From Nanobdellota archaeon (lineage in GTDB: Archaea; Nanobdellota; Nanobdellia; Pacearchaeales; GW2011-AR1), in the NCBI GenBank assembly GCA_013329055.1, contig DUKY01000007.1, positions 51,146-115,145 of the forward strand: a stretch of 64,000 nucleotides of DNA, written 5' to 3'. How positions within the stretch are numbered: the stretch's first letter is position 1; each line of letters opens with the position of its first letter. Both the position numbers and the translations under genes were made by a program. Under the pieces are notes generated by a model, which saw only the letters and a list, made by a program, of their open reading frames with translations, was not told the origin of the DNA and made no database searches. This document shows, piece by piece, positions 12,835-51,393 of the stretch.

Positions 12835-15222
12835 TTATTTCTTTTTTTCCTGTTCTGCAATTTTTATTCTTGTCTTAATTATAGTATCAGGATTTAAAGA
12901 AATTGAATCAATTCCTTCTTTTACTAAAAATTGTGCAAAGTCTGGAAAATCCGAAGGAGCTTGACCGCATATTCCGATTTTTCTTTTATTCTTTTTTGCT
13001 TTTTTAATCATGATTGAAATTAATTCTTTAACTGCCTCATTTCTTTCATCATAAACATCTGAAACAATTTCTGAATCACGATCAACACCTAAAGTTAATT
13101 GTGTTAAATCATTTGAACCTATGCTAAATCCGTCAAAAATTTTACTAAATTCATCAGCCAAAATTACATTTGATGGAATCTCGCACATTACATAAATCTC
13201 TAACTCATCTTTTCCACGAGATAATCCTTCTTTTGCCATTATCTCCTGAACTTTTTTTCCTTCCTCTATTGTTCTGCAAAATGGAATCATTACTTTTACA
13301 TTCTTTAAACCAAATTGATTTCTAACTTTTTTTATAGCTTTGCATTCCAATTCAAAACTTTTTCTAAATGCTTCCTTATAATAACGGCTTGCACCTCTCC
13401 AGCCAATCATAGGATTATCTTCTGTTGGTTCATAAAGTTCTCCGCCGATTAAATTTCTATACTCGTTTGTTTTAAAATCAGACATTCTTACTATAACATC
13501 TTTAGGATAAAAGGCTGCGGCAATCATTGCAATTCCTTCTGCTAATTTATCTATGTAAAATTGTTTTTTATCTTTGTATCCAAAAGTTAAATCATCAATT
13601 TTTTTCTTTATGTTTTTATCACTTAATTTATCATAATCAATTAATGCATTAGGATGTATTTTTATATGTGAATTAATAATAAATTCTTCACGAGCTAAAC
13701 CTACTCCGTCATTTGGGATAAAACTTTGTTCAAATGCCTGTTCAGGATTTCCGAGGTTCATCATAATTTTTGTTTTTGTTTTTGGTAATTTTTCCAAATT
13801 ATGTTTTTCTATAACATATTTTAACTTTCCTTCATAAACTCTGCCTTCTTCTCCATCTGCACAGGAAACTGTAACAAGGTCGCCATTTTTTAGTTTTTTA
13901 GTTGCGTCATCTGTTCCAACTAAACAAGGAATTCCAAGTTCCCTGGAAATAATTGCAGCATGACAAGTTCTTCCACCCTTATCGGTTACAATTGCCGAAG
14001 CGATTTTCATTATTGGCTCCCAATCAGGGTCAGTCATTTCAGTTACCAGAACTTCTCCTTTTTTAAAATCATGAATTCCTGAAACATTTTTTATAACCCT
14101 GACTTTTCCGGAACCGATTCTTGAACCAACACTTTGTCCTTTTGATAAAATTTTACCTTTTTCTTTTAAAACATATTCTTCTAAAATATTTACATTCCTT
14201 TGACTTTGAACAGTTTCAGGTCTTGCCTGAACAATATAAAGCTTATTTGTTTTTCCATCTTTTGCCCATTCAATATCCATTGCTTTTTTATAATGATCCT
14301 CGATAGTTATTGCCATTTTTGCAAGTTTTAATATTTCATCATCAGTAATAGAAAATTCTTTTTGTTTATCTTCCGAAACAGGAATATTTTTTACCTGTTT
14401 TAAATATTTTAAACCATAGATCATTCTTATTTTTTTATTCCCTAATTTTTTGGAGATAATTGACTTATAACCTTTTTTTAAAGTTGGTTTATGCACATAA
14501 AATTCGTCGGGATTAACTGCTCCCTGAACAATATTTTCTCCTAATCCATAAATAGAAGTGATAAATACTGCATCTTTAAATCCGGATTCAGTATCTATTG
14601 AAAACATTACTCCTGAAGAGGATAAATCAGACCTTACCATTTTTTGAACACCAATAGAAAGTGCGATAGTGAAATGATCAAATCCTTTATCCACTCTATA
14701 AGATATTGCTCTATTTGTAAATAATGATGCAAAGCATTTTTTGCATGATTTTAATAACTCTTTTTCTCCTCGAACATTCAAGTATGTTTCTTGCTGTCCT
14801 GCAAATGAAGCATCGGGCAAATCTTCTGCTGTTGCACTTGAACGAACCGCTACATCAGTATAATCCTCTTTAGATTCTTTAGATAATAATTTATAATTTT
14901 CAATAATTTCTTTTTGTAAGTCTAAAGGCAATTCTGCTTTTAAAATTAAATTACGAACTTTTTTGCCTCGCTTCATTAAATTACGAGTACTGGTTGTATC
15001 TAAATCGGAGAGGATTTTATGAATTTTATCTTTTAATCCTGCAGATTCAATAAAATATCTATATGCTAATGCAGTTATTGCAAATCCATTTGGAACAGTT
15101 ACGCCTTTTTTATTTAATTCACGATACATCTCCCCTAAAGATGCATTTTTTCCACCAACAATTGGAACATCTTCAATATGTAAGTCCTTAAATGGTATAA
15201 CTAAAATTCTTTTGCTATTCAT
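12835..15222 (-). CDS. ppsA: Phosphoenolpyruvate synthase (pyruvate, water dikinase), paralog 1
   Basis: It has the N-terminal ATP-grasp domain and the phospho-His domain (GGRTCHAAIISRELGIPCLVG). The C-terminal PEP-utilising barrel is also present. Confidence 0.9.
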   Translation of the reverse strand: MNSKRILVIPFKDLHIEDVPIVGGKNASLGEMYRELNKKGVTVPNGFAITALAYRYFIESAGLKDKIHKILSDLDTTSTRNLMKRGKKVRNLILKAELPLDLQKEIIENYKLLSKESKEDYTDVAVRSSATAEDLPDASFAGQQETYLNVRGEKELLKSCKKCFASLFTNRAISYRVDKGFDHFTIALSIGVQKMVRSDLSSSGVMFSIDTESGFKDAVFITSIYGLGENIVQGAVNPDEFYVHKPTLKKGYKSIISKKLGNKKIRMIYGLKYLKQVKNIPVSEDKQKEFSITDDEILKLAKMAITIEDHYKKAMDIEWAKDGKTNKLYIVQARPETVQSQRNVNILEEYVLKEKGKILSKGQSVGSRIGSGKVRVIKNVSGIHDFKKGEVLVTEMTDPDWEPIMKIASAIVTDKGGRTCHAAIISRELGIPCLVGTDDATKKLKNGDLVTVSCADGEEGRVYEGKLKYVIEKHNLEKLPKTKTKIMMNLGNPEQAFEQSFIPNDGVGLAREEFIINSHIKIHPNALIDYDKLSDKNIKKKIDDLTFGYKDKKQFYIDKLAEGIAMIAAAFYPKDVIVRMSDFKTNEYRNLIGGELYEPTEDNPMIGWRGASRYYKEAFRKSFELECKAIKKVRNQFGLKNVKVMIPFCRTIEEGKKVQEIMAKEGLSRGKDELEIYVMCEIPSNVILADEFSKIFDGFSIGSNDLTQLTLGVDRDSEIVSDVYDERNEAVKELISIMIKKAKKNKRKIGICGQAPSDFPDFAQFLVKEGIDSISLNPDTIIKTRIKIAEQEKKK

Positions 15223-23220: not shown

Positions 23221-23503
23221 AACCGCCAAGCCCCTGAAAGAAGATATGATTTAAATCATATTATAAACCACTGATAGGAATAGTGGACATTATTTATTTT
23301 TTTATTTAATTCCTTAAAATTTTATAAAATCCCGACGGGATTTTCCTCATAACCCATGAAAGCTTCTTTAAATTCACCCTCAAAAGTTATTCGTTCATTT
23401 ATTCGAACTTTCAGAGTTACTCGCCCGCAACTTTTAAAGTTTTTTGAATCTACTCAGATTAAACCCTTGAAATAAATATATACCTTTCTGTTTGTATATA
23501 TTA

Positions 23504-23599
23504 TGACCCCGACGGGAGTTGAACCCGCGACACCCAGATATCTCCATTGATAATTAAATCTAAGAGTCTGGTGCTCTAACCAGGCTGAGCTACGGAGCC
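23504..23599 (-). tRNA. tRNA-Lys (anticodon CUU) with a ~21-nt intron at the canonical 37/38 position
   Basis: Manual fold: acceptor GGCUCCG/CGGGGUC, D arm GCUC-AGCCUGGUUA-GAGC, anticodon stem CCAGA/UCUGG with loop CUCUUAA interrupted by GAUUUAAUUAUCAAUGGAGAU. T arm GCGGG-UUCAACU-CCCGU, discriminator A. Confidence 0.75.
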
Positions 23600-24030
23600 A
23601 TAGTAAAACATTAGTGATTTACTTTAAAAATATGTTGATTTACGTTAGCACCAGACGTAACTGGGGACGTTGAAAATTTGCCAAAAAGAAATTTTTAACA
23701 ATCAGAGAATTAAATTACAATTCTCTGAATCTAACCAGGCTGAAGCTACTGCAGCCATAGTAAAACATTAGTGATTTACTTTAAAAATATGTTGATTTAC
23801 GTTAGCACCAGATGTAAAGAGTCTGGAGACGTTGAAAATTTGCCAAAAAGAAATTTTTAACGATCAGAGAATTAAATTACAATTCTCTGAGTCTAACCAG
23901 GCTGAAGCTACTGCAGCCATAGTAAAACATTATTGATTTACTTTGGCACCAGACGTAAAGAGTCTGGGGACGTTGAAAATTTTGTAAAAAGAAATTTTTA
24001 ACGATCAGAGAATAGATTGATTGAAAATTT
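23600..24030. repeat. Tandem array upstream of tRNA-Lys: about 2.7 units of ~160 bp, each carrying a promoter-like segment, a 27-nt degenerate copy of the tRNA 5' end and a 10-bp-stem hairpin
   Basis: Repeated gcagccat (complement of the tRNA 5' end GGCUGCAG…) at ~23751-23758 and 23911-23918. Repeated cagagaattaaattacaattctctg hairpin. Confidence 0.8.
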
Positions 24031-24386: not shown

Positions 24387-26975
24387 ATGAAAACCTTTAT
24401 TAAGTTCTCAGGATATTTTAATTATATGATGAAAGATGGTGAAAAAAAGGTGGATTTTATTAAATGGTTTTCAGAATTAAATAAAAATTCCGGAGATGTT
24501 GCCGGCGGAAAAGGTGCAAATCTTGCAGAAATTTATAATCTGGGGGTGTTAGTTCCTCAAGGATTTGTTATTACAGCTCAAGCTTATAATTATTTTATTG
24601 AAAAAGCTAAATTAAAAGATAAAATGATTAGCATTTTAGAAGGATTAAATTATGAAGATACAGAAAAATTAGATAAAGTTACAGCAGAAATTCGTTCATT
24701 AATTGTGAATTCTAAAATCCCCGAAGAGATGAGTGAAGAAATTTTAGAAGCTTATGAACAATTGGGGACTGATTTATCTGAAATTGGAAAAAGTTCTGCT
24801 TTGGACATCTTAAAAAGATCTGCTGAACCAACTTTTGTGGCTGTAAGAAGCAGTGCGACGGCAGAGGATTTAGCAGAAGCAAGTTTTGCAGGTCAGCAAG
24901 ATTCATTTCTAAACATTAAAGGTAATTATGAACTATTGACTCATGTCAAAAAATGCTTTGCATCACTTTTTACTTCCAGAGCAACTTATTATAGACATAA
25001 GCAAGGATTCAAACATGAAAAAGTTAGTCTTGCAGTAGTTATCCAAAAAATGGTTGATTCAGATAAATCAGGTGTATTATTTTCAAAAGATCCTGCTTAC
25101 AAAAAAGAGGATATTACTATTGAAGCTGTATGGGGTCTTGGAGAAGGAATTGTCTCTGGAAAAATTACTCCTGACCATTATGTTATTTCAAGAGATTTAG
25201 AGATTTTAGAACAAAAAATTGCAGACAAAAAAATTGTAATAACAAGAGATTCTGGAGGCAAACAGATAATTCTCAAATTAAGAGATGAGAAATCAAATGC
25301 AAAAGTATTAACAGATTATGAGATGAGAAAATTAACTGAATTAGCAATAAAATTAGAAAAACACTATAAAAAACCACAAGATATTGAATTTGCGATAGAG
25401 GGCAATGATATTTTTATTACCCAAACTAGACCAATTACAACAATGGAAAAGAGAATTGATGAATCTTTAGAAAATCGAGAAATAAAAGGTACTCCAATAT
25501 TAACAGGTTTAGCAGCTTCTCCGGGAATAGCTTCTGGGAAAGTTAAAATTGTTCATAATTTAAAAGATTTACAAAAGGTAAATGTTGGGGATATTTTAGT
25601 TACAAAGATGACTAATCCGGATATGGTTGTTACAATGCAAAAGTCCGCAGCGATTGTGACCGATGAAGGAGGTCTTACTGCACATGCTTCAATTGTTTCA
25701 AGAGAAATGGGTATTCCTGCAATTGTTGGAACTCAAAATGCTACAACGCAATTTAAAGATGGAGATTTAATAACTGTTGACGGATTTAGCGGAAAAATAT
25801 ATTCCGGAAAAACTGCTGAAGATACTAAAAAAGAAATCTTGCCAGTAACAGCTAAAACTAAAACAAAAGTTAAAGTTATTGTTGATCTTCCAAATTTTGC
25901 ATCTCGTGCAGCAAAAACTGGGATTAGTAAAATTGGTTTAACAAGAATTGAAGGGATAATTGCTGAATCAGGAAAACATCCGGAATTTTTCCTGAAACAA
26001 AATAAAATTAAAGAATATGAAGAAATAATTTTCAAGGGTATTAATACAATTATGGAACATTTTGATGAAATCTGGGTTAGAACGTCGGATATTCGAAGTG
26101 ATGAATTTAATAATTTGGAAGGGGCCCCTAAAGAAATTGAAGCTAATCCAATGTTAGGATTTCATGGGATCAGATACAGTTTAAAAAATCCTGAGATTTT
26201 AAAAGCTGAATTCAGGGCTTTACAAAGAGTTGCTTCAAAAGAAAAAACAGTTGGATTACTATTGCCTCAAGTTATTTCTGTAGAAGAAGTTCAGGGAGTT
26301 AAGAAAATTCTAAAAGAGATTAATTTTAGTAATGTAAAAGTAGGGGTTATGATTGAAACGCCTGCAGCGGTGCAAATAATTAAAGATTTATGTACTGAAG
26401 GAATTGATTTTATTTCATTTGGAACGAATGACTTGACTCAATATATGCTGGCAGTTGATAGAGGCAATAAAAAAGTTCAATATCTTTACAATGAAATGCA
26501 TCCTTCAGTTTTATACCAACTTGAATATGTAATTCGGGTATGCAAGAGAAATAATGTTGAGACAAGCATTTGCGGACAAGCTGGGAGTCAAAAAGAGATG
26601 GTAAAATTTTTAGTCCACAAAAATATTGATAGTATAAGTGTTAATGCTGATGTTGCAAAAGAAATTTCTGATTATATTTTTGAAATTGAAGAAAATAAAG
26701 TTAAGGGAACTGATGAAGAACCAAGGCAATATCAACCATCAACAGAAGATAAGAATATTGAACAAAATTTAGAAAAAGATATACAGGCAATTGAAAAAGA
26801 AAAACAAGAATATCTTAAAACAAAAGAGAATACTAAAAAAACTGAAGAAAAACCGGAATTTGAAGAACCGCAAAAAATCGAGGATAATGAGGATTTTTCA
26901 ATAGTTGAAGATTTCGATAAATTAGAAGAAGATTTGGAAGCAATTGAAAAAGAAAGAAAGGAATACATAAAATAA
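24387..26975 (+). CDS. ppsA: Phosphoenolpyruvate synthase paralog 2 with a ~90 aa acidic, repeat-containing C-terminal tail
   Basis: Phospho-His domain GGLTAHASIVSREMGIPAIVG. The tail contains AIEKEKQEYLK and AIEKERKEYIK repeats. Confidence 0.85.
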   Translation: MKTFIKFSGYFNYMMKDGEKKVDFIKWFSELNKNSGDVAGGKGANLAEIYNLGVLVPQGFVITAQAYNYFIEKAKLKDKMISILEGLNYEDTEKLDKVTAEIRSLIVNSKIPEEMSEEILEAYEQLGTDLSEIGKSSALDILKRSAEPTFVAVRSSATAEDLAEASFAGQQDSFLNIKGNYELLTHVKKCFASLFTSRATYYRHKQGFKHEKVSLAVVIQKMVDSDKSGVLFSKDPAYKKEDITIEAVWGLGEGIVSGKITPDHYVISRDLEILEQKIADKKIVITRDSGGKQIILKLRDEKSNAKVLTDYEMRKLTELAIKLEKHYKKPQDIEFAIEGNDIFITQTRPITTMEKRIDESLENREIKGTPILTGLAASPGIASGKVKIVHNLKDLQKVNVGDILVTKMTNPDMVVTMQKSAAIVTDEGGLTAHASIVSREMGIPAIVGTQNATTQFKDGDLITVDGFSGKIYSGKTAEDTKKEILPVTAKTKTKVKVIVDLPNFASRAAKTGISKIGLTRIEGIIAESGKHPEFFLKQNKIKEYEEIIFKGINTIMEHFDEIWVRTSDIRSDEFNNLEGAPKEIEANPMLGFHGIRYSLKNPEILKAEFRALQRVASKEKTVGLLLPQVISVEEVQGVKKILKEINFSNVKVGVMIETPAAVQIIKDLCTEGIDFISFGTNDLTQYMLAVDRGNKKVQYLYNEMHPSVLYQLEYVIRVCKRNNVETSICGQAGSQKEMVKFLVHKNIDSISVNADVAKEISDYIFEIEENKVKGTDEEPRQYQPSTEDKNIEQNLEKDIQAIEKEKQEYLKTKENTKKTEEKPEFEEPQKIEDNEDFSIVEDFDKLEEDLEAIEKERKEYIK

Positions 26976-34850: not shown

Positions 34851-35963
34851 TCAAGGTATTATCTCAGGTCCAAAATATTTTTCATAATCAAAATCTTTTT
34901 GAGAGATTATTTTTTTATCAATTAATTTTTTTATTTCCGGCAAAGCAGATTGCAATTCACTAATTAAATGCTTAATTGATCTACAAACTAATTTGTCTCC
35001 GGTTTTAGGCCAAAGTTTTGCTTTTCTCCAATACATGCATCTTCCTCCGCAAATATCTTTTACATCACAAGAATCACATTCATTAACTAAAATCTTTTTT
35101 AATTTATTTGGTGAATCTTCGATTGTTCCGCAAACAAAGTCTTCGATATTATTCATTATCGGACAAGCAGAGATTTTGCCGTTAGTGGTTATTGCATAAC
35201 CTGAATGACCTGCTCCACAACGAATTAAAGTTTTTTCTTTTTTAAGCAAACTTTCAATAATTCCTAAGAAAGGATAAAGTTTCAATACTTTTCCTTCTTT
35301 CATTCTTTCAATCCAATATTTAATTAATTTTGAAGTTGATTCATTAACTTTATTTATAAAATTTGTAATTTTCTCTTTGTTAAAATCTTCCTTATAAAAA
35401 CCAATATCTAATTGCCAATGTATTGAATCAAAACCTGCGTTTATTAAATTTAAAACCTGTTCATAAATGTCAGGACAATCCTGAGCGATAGTCATTCTTG
35501 CAATTAACTCTCCGTTATATCCGTTTTTTTTCATTAAAGAAATATTTTGCATTATTTTATCATAAGTTCCTTTACCACGGTTAGAATCTGTCCTTTCTTT
35601 ATCGCCGTCTAATGAAATTAAGATTTTTGTAATTTTATTTAAATATTCTTTTGGTAAAAGGTTTAATAATTGACCGTTAGTTTGCATACGATATTTTAAG
35701 TTTAAATTTTTTAGATAATCCATTATTTCAATAATTTTATTTTTTTGCAGTAATGGTTCTCCTCCATAGAAAATTAATACGGGATTAGAATCTTTTTCTA
35801 AAAACTTTTTTAATTTTTCTAAATCAATATCTAAATCACAGGGTGCAGAAAAATCAAATTTGAATCTTTTTTCTAATCCATTCTCAAACTCTTGCATTGA
35901 TTTTTCATAGCAATATCTGCATTGCAGATTACATTTTTCTGTTAGGATAATGTGATAGTGCAT
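34851..35963 (-). CDS. Radical SAM enzyme with C-terminal SPASM/twitch domain (anSME-like maturase family)
   Basis: CNLQCRYCY (CxxxCxxC) motif. C-terminal Cys clusters CGAGHSGYAITTNGKISACP and CDSCDVKDICGGRC. Confidence 0.85.
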   Translation of the reverse strand: MHYHIILTEKCNLQCRYCYEKSMQEFENGLEKRFKFDFSAPCDLDIDLEKLKKFLEKDSNPVLIFYGGEPLLQKNKIIEIMDYLKNLNLKYRMQTNGQLLNLLPKEYLNKITKILISLDGDKERTDSNRGKGTYDKIMQNISLMKKNGYNGELIARMTIAQDCPDIYEQVLNLINAGFDSIHWQLDIGFYKEDFNKEKITNFINKVNESTSKLIKYWIERMKEGKVLKLYPFLGIIESLLKKEKTLIRCGAGHSGYAITTNGKISACPIMNNIEDFVCGTIEDSPNKLKKILVNECDSCDVKDICGGRCMYWRKAKLWPKTGDKLVCRSIKHLISELQSALPEIKKLIDKKIISQKDFDYEKYFGPEIIP

Positions 35964-35964
35964 T

Positions 35965-36507
35965 TTAAAATTTACAAAAGTTTTTTATTAATTCAGGATT
36001 TTTTACTTCCGGATGAAAGGATATTCCATAAATCTCTTTAGATTTATGTTTAATAATTGCATTATCAATATCTGTTTTGCCTAAAATTTCAAAATTATGC
36101 AATTCTTTTAATGACATATTATGCACAAAATATGCTTCGAAAGATTTTGGAAGGTTGAAAAAATCTGATTTTAATTTTACTTCTTTTAATCCGATTTCCT
36201 GGTTAAATTTTGGCTTTGCACCGAATACAAAACCGACTATATGCATACCTGCACATATTCCCAGAATTGGTTGATTAATATTTTTTATCCATTCAAATTT
36301 ATCCCCTGAGTGAAGATATTCAAAATCTTTTAGTGACGTTCCTGGAATAATTATTTTATCATAATTGTTTAAATTATCCTGTGAAAAATTTTTATAATTA
36401 ATTGTTGAAAATTGAATTTCATTTTTTAGTAAAATCTTTTCAATAGGTTTTACAAATTCTAATTCATGTAATTTTTCCTTGCATGTTGAAATAATTAATA
36501 TTTTCAT
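35965..36507 (-). CDS. Class I glutamine amidotransferase (GuaA subunit A-like)
   Basis: Catalytic Cys in GICAGMHIV and the His-Pro-Glu motif ISFHPE. About 180 aa. Confidence 0.8.
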   Translation of the reverse strand: MKILIISTCKEKLHELEFVKPIEKILLKNEIQFSTINYKNFSQDNLNNYDKIIIPGTSLKDFEYLHSGDKFEWIKNINQPILGICAGMHIVGFVFGAKPKFNQEIGLKEVKLKSDFFNLPKSFEAYFVHNMSLKELHNFEILGKTDIDNAIIKHKSKEIYGISFHPEVKNPELIKNFCKF

Positions 36508-37172
36508 TCTACATCTATTTCCATTCTCCAGGAATTTTTTTCTCCGGAAATTTTTTTGTCAGTTATATTTAAGGATTTTTTAAATAACGGGCAATTCAAA
36601 GTAAATGTTTCAAATTCTCCTCCTTCTCCGGCAGGGTGAATTTGATATTTTTGATTTAATTTTTTTACTTTATCAATAAATTCTTCGTTAATTTCTTTTC
36701 CTAACCATGATTCATCCAAAGGATAAGCAAATACCCCGACGATAATTACTTTAAATTTTAGGTTAATGATTTCATGCAAATATTCAAATTCATCTTTTTG
36801 CCATAATGGATTAAAGCATTCTAAATCCAGTTCATTACAAATTTTCTGAATTCTTGATGCCTGATAAATAGATTGCAGAGCACCGGTAACAATCCCTCCT
36901 ATGTGATATTCGTCTTTTGCTTTTTTTATTGCTTTTTTCAAATCTTTCAGTTCAATTTCTTTTTTTCCTTTAGTTTTTTGAATAATTAACGGAATTTGCA
37001 TTACTTCTGCCTGTTTTTTAGTCTTTTCAATTGAAGGCGTATGAAACATATAACTTTCTTTATTTTCAGATACGATTGAAATTAAGCATGACAATTCATG
37101 ACCTGCTTCTTTTGCTAAATAAGAAGCCATACATGAATCTTTTCCTCCGGAAAATAATACTGCAACTTTCAT
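36504..37172 (-). CDS. PP-loop ATP pyrophosphatase of the MJ0570/Dph6 (diphthine--ammonia ligase) family
   Basis: PP-loop SGGKDS and the family hallmark GEGGEFETF. 4-nt overlap with the downstream GATase. Confidence 0.8.
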   Translation of the reverse strand: MKVAVLFSGGKDSCMASYLAKEAGHELSCLISIVSENKESYMFHTPSIEKTKKQAEVMQIPLIIQKTKGKKEIELKDLKKAIKKAKDEYHIGGIVTGALQSIYQASRIQKICNELDLECFNPLWQKDEFEYLHEIINLKFKVIIVGVFAYPLDESWLGKEINEEFIDKVKKLNQKYQIHPAGEGGEFETFTLNCPLFKKSLNITDKKISGEKNSWRMEIDVE

Positions 37173-43869: not shown

Positions 43870-45165
43870 TTATCTAACATTGCTCCAATATTCCAAAGCC
43901 GTTTTTAACTCAGGGTGTGTTTTTGCATATTCATCTAAAGAAATTTTTTTCATGGTAGCATCAACAGCTTGACGCATTGCCCTTGCTCCGACAATTGTCC
44001 CTTGTGGATGACCGTGAATTCCTCCACCTGCCTGAATTACAACATCTTTACCCATAAAGTCTATAATTTTATCTACAATTCTTGGATAAACTCCTCCTGA
44101 AGCTACTGCGAACACAGGTTTAGTTCCATACCATTTTTGTTCAAGATTATTTTTTGTTTCAGGAGTAAAGTTATTTTCAATTTCTTGTTCTATATGCAAA
44201 ACTTCATTTTTATCTCCGGTCATTTTTCCATAGGCAGTTCCAATATGAAGCGTATCTACACCGACCATTCTAGCCCACTGTGCAATAATTTCCATGCTCA
44301 TGCCATGTTCAGGATTTCTATCAAACATTGCATGTCCTGCCCTATGTGCATGAATTGGAAGCTTTGTAAAGTTTCTTGCAGTTTGCAATGCACTCCAACC
44401 TAATGTGAGAATATCAAGCATAATATAATTTCCCCCATTTTCTTCCACAAATTTAATCCGCCTTTTCATCTCTTCACATTCTGCTGTGCAATTAATCAAA
44501 TAAACTTTCTTTTCCCCTGTTTCTTTTTCTGCTTTTTTTAAAGCTTTAATTGTCAACAAAAATCTTTTTTTGAATTTGTTAAAATTTTGACTTGTTAAAT
44601 TCTCGTCATCTTTTACAACGTCACATCCGCCTAACCATGATTCATATGCTACTTTTGCATGTTCTTTAGAAGTTAAACCTACTTTTGGTTTTACAATTGT
44701 TCCTACTAATGGTCTGTCTTTAATTTTCAAATATTTTCTTATACCTTTAATTCCATAACGTGGACCTTTAAAACTTTTTAACATTTTTTTTGGGATTCTT
44801 ACGTCTTCCCATAAAATTCCATCTGCACTTTTCATTCCGTAAATATTTCCGCCGATAGAAGACATTACACAGGGTAAATTTCCAAGTTCAAATAAATCCA
44901 GAGGATAAGCAATTCTAATTCGTTTATTTTCTTTATCAAGATAATATACTTTTGGAGCTAATTTTTTACCTATTTTTGGATTCATTGTTTTTACATCTGT
45001 CCATGTTCCAACACTACTTTCTCCTGCAACCATGCTTGCTACATCATTAAATTCATAACCTTTTGCGGGAGTTATTTTAAATTGGCAAAGAACATCAGTA
45101 TCTCTTGGCTTATATTTTAAATCAATAAAACTTCTATAACCGGATTTCAATTTTGTTTCCACCAT
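43870..45165 (-). CDS. rbcL: Ribulose-1,5-bisphosphate carboxylase large subunit, archaeal form III (or II/III)
   Basis: Active-site region GGCDVVKDDENLTSQ, CO2-acceptor Lys context, and C-terminal GGGIHGHPQG. Confidence 0.9.
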   Translation of the reverse strand: MVETKLKSGYRSFIDLKYKPRDTDVLCQFKITPAKGYEFNDVASMVAGESSVGTWTDVKTMNPKIGKKLAPKVYYLDKENKRIRIAYPLDLFELGNLPCVMSSIGGNIYGMKSADGILWEDVRIPKKMLKSFKGPRYGIKGIRKYLKIKDRPLVGTIVKPKVGLTSKEHAKVAYESWLGGCDVVKDDENLTSQNFNKFKKRFLLTIKALKKAEKETGEKKVYLINCTAECEEMKRRIKFVEENGGNYIMLDILTLGWSALQTARNFTKLPIHAHRAGHAMFDRNPEHGMSMEIIAQWARMVGVDTLHIGTAYGKMTGDKNEVLHIEQEIENNFTPETKNNLEQKWYGTKPVFAVASGGVYPRIVDKIIDFMGKDVVIQAGGGIHGHPQGTIVGARAMRQAVDATMKKISLDEYAKTHPELKTALEYWSNVR

Positions 45166-50976: not shown

Positions 50977-51393
50977 TTATTTATTTAATAATAATTCAAT
51001 CTTCTTAGGATTCTTTTTTATTTCTTTAACAATTGTTGCAGGACCAATGATTGTTATTGCACCAAGGTCTCCGCCACTAATAAGATTCACAACTCCTTTT
51101 TTTAAAGTTCCAAAAAAACTTAAATCATCTTCAGAAATTACTGCTAATTCAATACCTGTAAAACCTTTAACATGATCAACCATTGCCATTGTATCCCAGA
51201 TTAATCTTGTTTCTTCTTCGTTTCTTAATCGACCTTGCAATATTAGGATATTATTTCCCAAAACAATCTTTAAAATCTTTTGAATTCTTTCGTTGCCATC
51301 TAAAGATTTCATTTCCGAATAGGGTAAGAACTGAATAGAAAAGCCTTTAATCTTTCCAAGATTTTTTTTCATTCCATCATTTTTTTGAGTCAT
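50977..51393 (-). CDS. DUF2073-like conserved archaeal protein
   Basis: Conserved position between the small GTPase and Zn-ribbon genes. Confidence 0.45.
   Translation of the reverse strand: MTQKNDGMKKNLGKIKGFSIQFLPYSEMKSLDGNERIQKILKIVLGNNILILQGRLRNEEETRLIWDTMAMVDHVKGFTGIELAVISEDDLSFFGTLKKGVVNLISGGDLGAITIIGPATIVKEIKKNPKKIELLLNK

Follow-up and report, generated by a model that had tools for sequence, protein, structure and literature searches.

A class I glutamine amidotransferase linked to archaeal Dph6 points to a glutamine-dependent form of diphthamide synthetase

Where does the nitrogen of diphthamide come from? The identification of Dph6 left the nitrogen donor of the final biosynthetic step unsettled, and the question is raised anew by a gene pair of a Nanobdellota archaeon (assembly GCA_013329055.1, contig DUKY01000007.1). 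The pair lies in a stretch of 64,000 nucleotides (nt; contig positions 51,146–115,145; G+C content of 28%) that was analyzed as a whole and is termed the window here. The upstream gene, dph6 (positions 36504–37172 of the window, minus strand), encodes a 222-residue PP-loop ATPase of the diphthine–ammonia ligase family. The downstream gene (35965–36507, minus strand) encodes a 180-residue class I glutamine amidotransferase (GATase). The two genes share a 4-nt ATGA overlap (36504–36507, minus strand; tcat on the plus strand), in which the TGA stop codon of dph6 meets the ATG start codon of the GATase gene, as the initial annotation of this DNA had reported. Comparisons of sequences, gene order and predicted structures make it probable that the gene pair encodes a heteromeric, glutamine-hydrolyzing diphthamide synthetase, which is split into two chains here and fused into one chain elsewhere. 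Dph6 would be the synthetase subunit of this enzyme, and the GATase, which belongs to a Dph6-linked family other than GuaA-A, would be its glutaminase subunit.

Profile scores and conserved motifs identify the PP-loop protein as a Dph6 ortholog. It passes the archaeal Dph6 equivalog model TIGR03679 (Dph6_archaeal; 282.9 bits, cut-off of 197.3) and matches PF01902 (E = 1.4e-70; 237.7 bits versus 23.2), and it falls far under the cut-off of 250 of the DUF71 paralog models PAB0415 (84.5 bits) and TTX_0299 (57.4 bits). The protein also matches the Pyrococcus structures of PH1257 (PDB 2d13; 4.9e-62) and PF0828 (PDB 3rjz; 7.2e-58), with 43–50% sequence identity over ~200 residues. The translation contains the ATP pyrophosphatase signature SGGKDS at residues 8–13 (37134–37151, minus strand) and the Dph6-specific acidic cluster EGGEFE at residues 183–188 (36609–36626, minus strand). 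In 31 GATase-linked Dph6 sequences, G9, G10, K11, D12 and S13 of the first motif and E183, E186 and E188 of the second motif show no variation, and S8 is kept in 90% or more of the sequences.

The three glutamates are among the PF0828 residues that were placed at the EF-2 (elongation factor 2) interface or the active site (PMC3541065). The residues of PF0828 that were proposed, from a modeled interface, to contact EF-2 are S44, Y45, E78, Y103, Q104, A149, E183, E186 and E188 (PMC3541065). When this numbering was transferred through an alignment with the window Dph6, all nine proposed EF-2-contact residues were found in the window protein (S40, Y41, E74, Y103, Q104, A149, E183, E186 and E188). 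Moreover, S40, E74, Y103, Q104, E183, E186 and E188 are invariant in the 31 sequences, and A149 is conserved in at least 90% of them. The suggestion of the initial annotation that a Dph6 paralog had been recruited to another substrate is thus disfavored by the TIGR03679 score, the failure of both paralog models and the retention of the proposed EF-2-contact residues.

The partner protein is a class I GATase by its match to PF00117 (E = 3.1e-17; 63.3 bits versus a gathering threshold of 22.8). Its nucleophile, Cys85, resides in the sequence GICAGMH (TGT codon, 36253–36255, minus strand), and the rest of the catalytic triad is located in the His165-Pro166-Glu167 segment (CAT...GAA, 36007–36015, minus strand). 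Both elements are invariant in 32 aligned family members that are only 46–62% identical to the window GATase. The N-terminal third of the protein contains a family-specific conserved motif, E17-F18-x2-P21. Weak matches to Peptidase_C26 were also observed. A profile of the GATase family retrieved 243 clusters at E ≤ 1e-30 from 1.84 billion cluster representatives.

The GATase had been described as GuaA-A-like, and in sequence and fold it is indeed nearest to GuaA-A, which provides its closest solved structures and best named models. The model scores show, however, that it is not GuaA-A. The GATase failed both GuaA-A models (NF001975 and TIGR00888), with 65.2 bits versus 198 for the best named NCBIfam model, GMP synthase subunit A, and 56 bits versus 172 for the other. 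In the reverse comparison, the family profile gave true GuaA-A chains 68 bits and the 150 best family members 154–242 bits, and only residues 74–177 of the family aligned with the GuaA-A protein MJ1575. No GuaA-B-type PP-loop gene was found in the window or near 135 related loci (1.18 Mb in total). In the same 1.18 Mb around these genes, no SGGxDS motif was found outside the Dph6 family, except for an isolated SGGRDS at locus L035. Existing labels of the two families are misleading: many GATase family members are named 'GMP synthase (glutamine-hydrolysing)' in JGI, and Dph6 family members are often named 'ABC transporter with metal-binding/Fe-S-binding domain ATP-binding protein'.

The link between the two genes is conserved across archaea. 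The GATase family alignment was scanned against GTDB with one genome per species, and the best 80 loci were kept. In 72 of these loci, the 3.2 kb upstream of the GATase gene contain a dph6 homolog in the same orientation. The remaining eight comprise three loci with less than 0.9 kb of upstream DNA, three with 2.5–3.2 kb and two with the full 6 kb. Sixty loci have 3.5 kb or more of upstream DNA, and 58 of these include dph6. As a gene-order control, other neighbors from the window were counted at the same 60 loci, and each is retained in 25% or fewer of them (ScpA, 15; S27ae, 11; HisRS, 10; radical S-adenosylmethionine (SAM) protein, 2; HIT, 0). The co-occurrence survey proposed by the initial annotation therefore finds that the pair persists in 58 of the 60 evaluable species and that the adjacency is kept in relatives. 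No alternative synthetase partner was found at the loci that lack dph6. Some loci carry the source labels Thermoplasmata, Poseidoniales, Bathyarchaeia or Nitrososphaeria, which may reflect binning or naming errors.

The junction between the genes is an exact 4-nt overlap (ATGA or GTGA) in 44 of 71 pairs and does not exceed 12 nt in 50 of the 71. The overlap in the window carries no weight by itself because 4-nt overlaps are found in 6 of the 40 same-strand neighbor pairs of the window. It is the conservation of the pair together with the overlap over dozens of species that is above chance. Consistently, pairwise distances among the Dph6 proteins track those among the GATases, with a matrix correlation of r = 0.81 compared with a maximum of 0.35 over 2000 permutations. 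This correlation shows co-inheritance, and shared ancestry alone could give the same r.

The two proteins also occur as single chains. Six proteins of 421–470 residues among the best 150 family clusters contain an N-terminal Dph6 domain and a C-terminal GATase domain, and this domain order is identical to the gene order of the operon. The domain matches are separated by ~20–85 residues, and the catalytic motifs are intact. All six fusions pass TIGR03679 (238–288 bits versus 197.3), and their scores for PAB0415 and TTX_0299 are far under the cut-offs of these paralog models. When one fusion was used as a query, both domains were present in 113 of the 120 best clusters listed. Many of the fusions have Methanothrix or Methanosaeta as a source label, and others are labeled Aenigmarchaeota, Micrarchaeota, Woesearchaeota or Nanobdellota. 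One example from Methanothrix is NCBI MFZ2471518.1. Two fusions were confirmed in DNA, on contigs of 95 and 23 kb. In the databases, the fusions are named 'diphthine--ammonia ligase' or, in one case, 'GMP synthase subunit A'.

Two fusions that share 43% sequence identity were modeled with AlphaFold2. Both models displayed high confidence, with predicted local distance difference test values of 95.2 and 94.2 and predicted template modeling (TM) scores of 0.93 and 0.92, and only the linker was modeled with low confidence. Because these predicted TM scores apply to two-domain chains, a fixed relative arrangement of the domains is predicted. In a Foldseek search, the N-terminal domain matched PH1257/PF0828 (TM score of 0.95; root-mean-square deviation of 1.4 Å), and the C-terminal domain matched the GuaA-A, PabA and TrpG glutaminases (TM scores of 0.72–0.76). 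No solved chain covering both domains was retrieved in this search. The window proteins and the fusions showed no match to an AsnB-type domain, and the partner is a class I (PF00117) domain. The statement that Dph6 is normally stand-alone holds in part; fusions with AsnB-type and RidA modules are known (PMC3541065), and fusions with a class I GATase are common in the present data.

GMP synthetase and other PP-loop amidotransferases provide the template for a mechanism that combines these observations. We infer that the two proteins form a complex here, that glutamine is used, that ammonia is transferred and that the acceptor is EF-2 diphthine. Dph6 would bind ATP through its PP-loop and adenylate the diphthine carboxylate on EF-2, a step that is established for yeast Dph6. 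The GATase would hydrolyze glutamine through Cys85, His165 and Glu167 and release ammonia. The ammonia would then move inside the complex to the Dph6 site and attack the adenylate, yielding diphthamide and AMP. The ATGA overlap would couple the translation of the two subunits, and overlap or fusion would keep their amounts equal. The proposal of a glutamine-dependent two-subunit amidoligase in the initial annotation, with diphthamide synthetase as its simplest form, is supported by the linkage in 58 of 60 loci and by more than 100 fusion clusters, with the activity itself being predicted from these patterns.

Several observations weigh against an obligatory partnership or against the assigned activity. 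Metagenome contigs were searched with the window Dph6 for relatives with 58–95% identity and no less than 800 nt of DNA past dph6, and ~13 of the 29 close dph6 relatives lack a GATase gene within 4 kb. In a neighbor-joining tree without support values, the GATase-less dph6 genes form two subclades that are nested among GATase-linked genes and adjoin the window lineage. Conversely, two species have the GATase gene without a nearby dph6 despite 6 kb of upstream DNA. In 21 of the 71 pairs, the two genes are separated by 84–3135 nt, with unrelated genes in most of the gaps, and order and strand are kept. Finally, the activity of archaeal Dph6 is still called unconfirmed (PMC8305020).

Because about half of the close dph6 relatives have no GATase gene within 4 kb, the partner must be either dispensable or encoded elsewhere, and Dph6 is presumably still able to use free ammonia. 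The nested position of the GATase-less subclades suggests secondary loss or relocation of the GATase gene. The pairs that are more than 12 nt apart indicate that strict translational coupling is not required. The GATase is found almost always with Dph6, and Dph6 is found only sometimes with the GATase. This asymmetry fits a dedicated accessory subunit, which the GATase appears to be.

Alternative explanations concern the acceptor, the partnership and the state of the GATase gene. The enzyme could be a glutamine-dependent amidoligase that acts on a cobamide precursor or another carboxylate rather than on EF-2 diphthine. DUF71 proteins are not monofunctional, and a B12-salvage DUF71 subfamily has been predicted (PMC3541065); at a single locus, on a Methanothrix metagenome-assembled genome (L086:6426-7922), a fusion gene directly follows the gene of the cobyric acid synthase CobQ (596.7 bits). 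The unproven activity of archaeal Dph6 (PMC8305020) also leaves room for another acceptor. We nevertheless regard such an acceptor as unlikely, given that the window protein and the six fusions pass the Dph6 equivalog model and score far below PAB0415 and TTX_0299, that the proposed EF-2-contact residues are conserved and that B12 genes are absent from the fusion locus L087 and from the Pacearchaeota/Woesearchaeota-type loci. Moreover, DPANN archaea carry dph1/2 and dph5 (PMC6143161), with split Dph1/2 genes reported in Pacearchaeota and Woesearchaeota (PMC6143161, PMC6349945), and these archaea would then be left without a Dph6. It is less probable still that the GATase is an independent glutaminase or γ-glutamyl hydrolase that is only co-transcribed with dph6 and is not in a complex with its product, its role being a general increase in ammonia or something else. 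The weak Peptidase_C26 matches, the lack of the GATase in many close dph6 relatives and the tolerance of unrelated genes between the two are in line with such an enzyme, but the more than 100 fusion clusters and the confident packing of their domains argue for physical cooperation. Furthermore, the linkage is far above background synteny, and the loci without dph6 offer no other candidate synthetase partner.

The GATase could also be the GuaA-A subunit of a split archaeal GMP synthase that stands beside dph6 by accident, as its nearest solved structures, its nearest named models and the JGI names of many members would imply. This assignment is very improbable in view of the low scores against both GuaA-A models, the gap between true GuaA-A chains and family members on the family profile and the lack of a GuaA-B-type gene near any of the 135 loci. 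In addition, the Dph6–GATase fusions extend to Methanothrix, an inferred free-living methanogen with its own purine pathway, and purine synthesis is absent from many DPANN archaea (PMC6349945). A last explanation is restricted to this genome, in which the GATase gene might be a non-functional, decaying remnant on its way to loss. Sister subclades lack the gene, and the metagenome contig Ga0208953_1000024 (locus L088), whose DNA is 92–97% identical to the window across the region, encodes a GATase that is only 62% identical to that of the window between flanking proteins of 95% (Dph6) and 93% (radical SAM protein) identity. The divergence is confined to a tract inside the GATase gene (window positions 36052–36435 versus L088:4666-5217). 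The DNA for residues 1–24 and 153–180 is 97–100% identical, and that for residues 25–152 is 33–83% identical. Decay is hardly plausible, however, because both genomes have kept an intact reading frame, a complete triad and the 4-nt overlap, and because the ratio of nonsynonymous to synonymous substitution rates (dN/dS) of the GATase gene is 0.38 rather than ~1. The sharp tract boundaries and the high synonymous divergence (dS of 0.78, compared with 0.15 for dph6) fit an allele replacement, and the divergent segment has the appearance of internal recombination or an allele swap.

In the window, the gene pair is followed by a third minus-strand gene (34851–35963), which begins 1 nt past the GATase stop codon and encodes a 370-residue radical SAM/SPASM protein of the TIGR04084 family (312.8 bits versus a cut-off of 225). 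The upstream neighbor of dph6 is a divergently transcribed HIT-family gene. The radical SAM/SPASM protein was considered as a third component and rejected, as its gene is next to the pair in only 2–4 of ~130 loci; it is probably co-transcribed with the pair in the window and lies outside the conserved unit. It directly follows the GATase gene only at L088 (93% amino acid identity) and L021 (57% amino acid identity), and it is also found 2.7 kb past a GATase-less dph6 at L109. The other loci lack it. The TIGR04084 (AF0577) family is uncharacterized.

Other genes accompany the pair elsewhere. In ~10 species, the gene after the GATase gene encodes a protein of ~246 residues that gives a weak class I methyltransferase signal, and the two genes overlap by 4 nt at L002:5543-6283. 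Homologs occur at L039, L025, L033, L084, L056, L041, L054 and L134, and two such loci lack an upstream dph6. A 689-residue protein, P0494, is a triple Dph6–GATase–SAM methyltransferase fusion whose methyltransferase domain is unrelated to this 246-residue protein. Genes inserted between dph6 and the GATase gene (L001, L008, L010, L021, L035, L036, L040, L043, L045, L057, L068, L071 and L074) encode an EEP nuclease and SIMPL/DUF541, SLT lytic transglycosylase, TauE, GNAT and shikimate-kinase-like proteins, and several of them overlap both dph6 and the GATase gene by 4 nt. The first three loci had suggested a conserved small protein or TauE between the two genes, an idea that was abandoned because the genes found there are of diverse kinds.

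A protein of the DPANN archaeon GW2011_AR13 has the same amino acid sequence as the window GATase (100% identity). The window also encodes GatD, UvrA, UvrB, UvrC, HisRS and the CCA-adding enzyme, and no guaA-B, dph2, dph5 or EF-2 gene and no second DUF71 copy was found within its 64 kb. Two paralogs similar to PEP synthase or pyruvate phosphate dikinase (12835–15222, minus strand; 24387–26975, plus strand) and a homolog of the RuBisCO large subunit (43870–45165, minus strand) are present. A 98-nt tRNA gene (23503–23600, minus strand; Rfam tRNA, 52.7 bits), to which ARAGORN assigns the four-base anticodon 'ctta', is probably an intron-containing archaeal tRNA gene.

The proposed enzyme resembles several known systems. 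The window protein shares the PP-loop, the EGGE motif, the proposed EF-2-contact residues and the fold with Dph6 (EC 6.3.1.14; yeast YLR143W, PH1257, PF0828 and the MJ0570 family). Characterized Dph6 uses ammonium and the studied archaeal forms are single proteins, whereas the window Dph6 has a coupled class I glutaminase that is fused to it in other lineages. The two-subunit archaeal GMP synthetase (MJ1575/MJ1131 and PH1346/PH1347) follows a like logic, in which a ~185-residue Cys-His-Glu GATase feeds a PP-loop ATP pyrophosphatase that adenylates the acceptor. In contrast to that system, the partner here is Dph6 and not GuaA-B, the proposed acceptor is a protein side chain and not a nucleotide, and the first ~70 residues of the window GATase, with the conserved EF..P motif, do not align with MJ1575. 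NAD+ synthetase NadE is likewise a PP-loop amidating enzyme that occurs with or without a glutaminase module in related organisms, with similar patchiness, but its glutaminase is nitrilase-like and its substrate is different.

The closest precedent is provided by the AsnB–DUF71 and eukaryotic Dph6–RidA fusions, which share the idea that Dph6 is fed by an attached ammonia-generating module from a lineage-dependent source (PMC3541065). In that work, de Crécy-Lagard et al. (2012) proposed that the Dph6 ammonia source varies by organism, citing AsnB-type fusions in a few archaea and RidA fusions in eukaryotes (PMC3541065). The AsnB–DUF71 module combines a class II (Ntn) amidotransferase and an asparagine-synthetase domain and RidA is a deaminase, whereas the module here is a class I triad GATase. 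Compared with the AsnB–DUF71 fusions of 'few Archaea', the class I module, which is encoded either by a partner gene in the operon or as the C-terminal part of a fusion, is far more widespread. The text of PMC3541065 makes no mention of class I GATases or Methanosaeta, and full-text literature searches found no published description of a class I GATase paired with Dph6. The principle of an attached ammonia source is thus anticipated, and the module, its breadth and the operon/fusion duality are not.

On balance, we favor the broader reading that many archaea make diphthamide with a glutamine-hydrolyzing enzyme that is split in DPANN archaea of the Pacearchaeota/Woesearchaeota type and fused in Methanothrix, Aenigmarchaeota and Micrarchaeota. 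Such an enzyme would have an unassigned EC 6.3.5.- activity, and it would be an amidotransferase of the class I GATase type that acts on a modified side chain of a folded protein, EF-2. It would be ancestral in the clade and repeatedly lost. If this is true, the nitrogen of diphthamide would be taken from glutamine rather than from free ammonia, and the glutamine-dependent diphthamide synthetase would be a new enzyme form. A systematic misannotation as 'GMP synthase', which could add a spurious step of GMP synthesis to the reconstructed metabolism of DPANN archaea, would be corrected. The system would also offer a way to study the coupling between a triad GATase and a synthetase with a protein as its substrate, and the patchy distribution of the partner would serve as a natural experiment on the need for glutamine-derived versus free ammonia.

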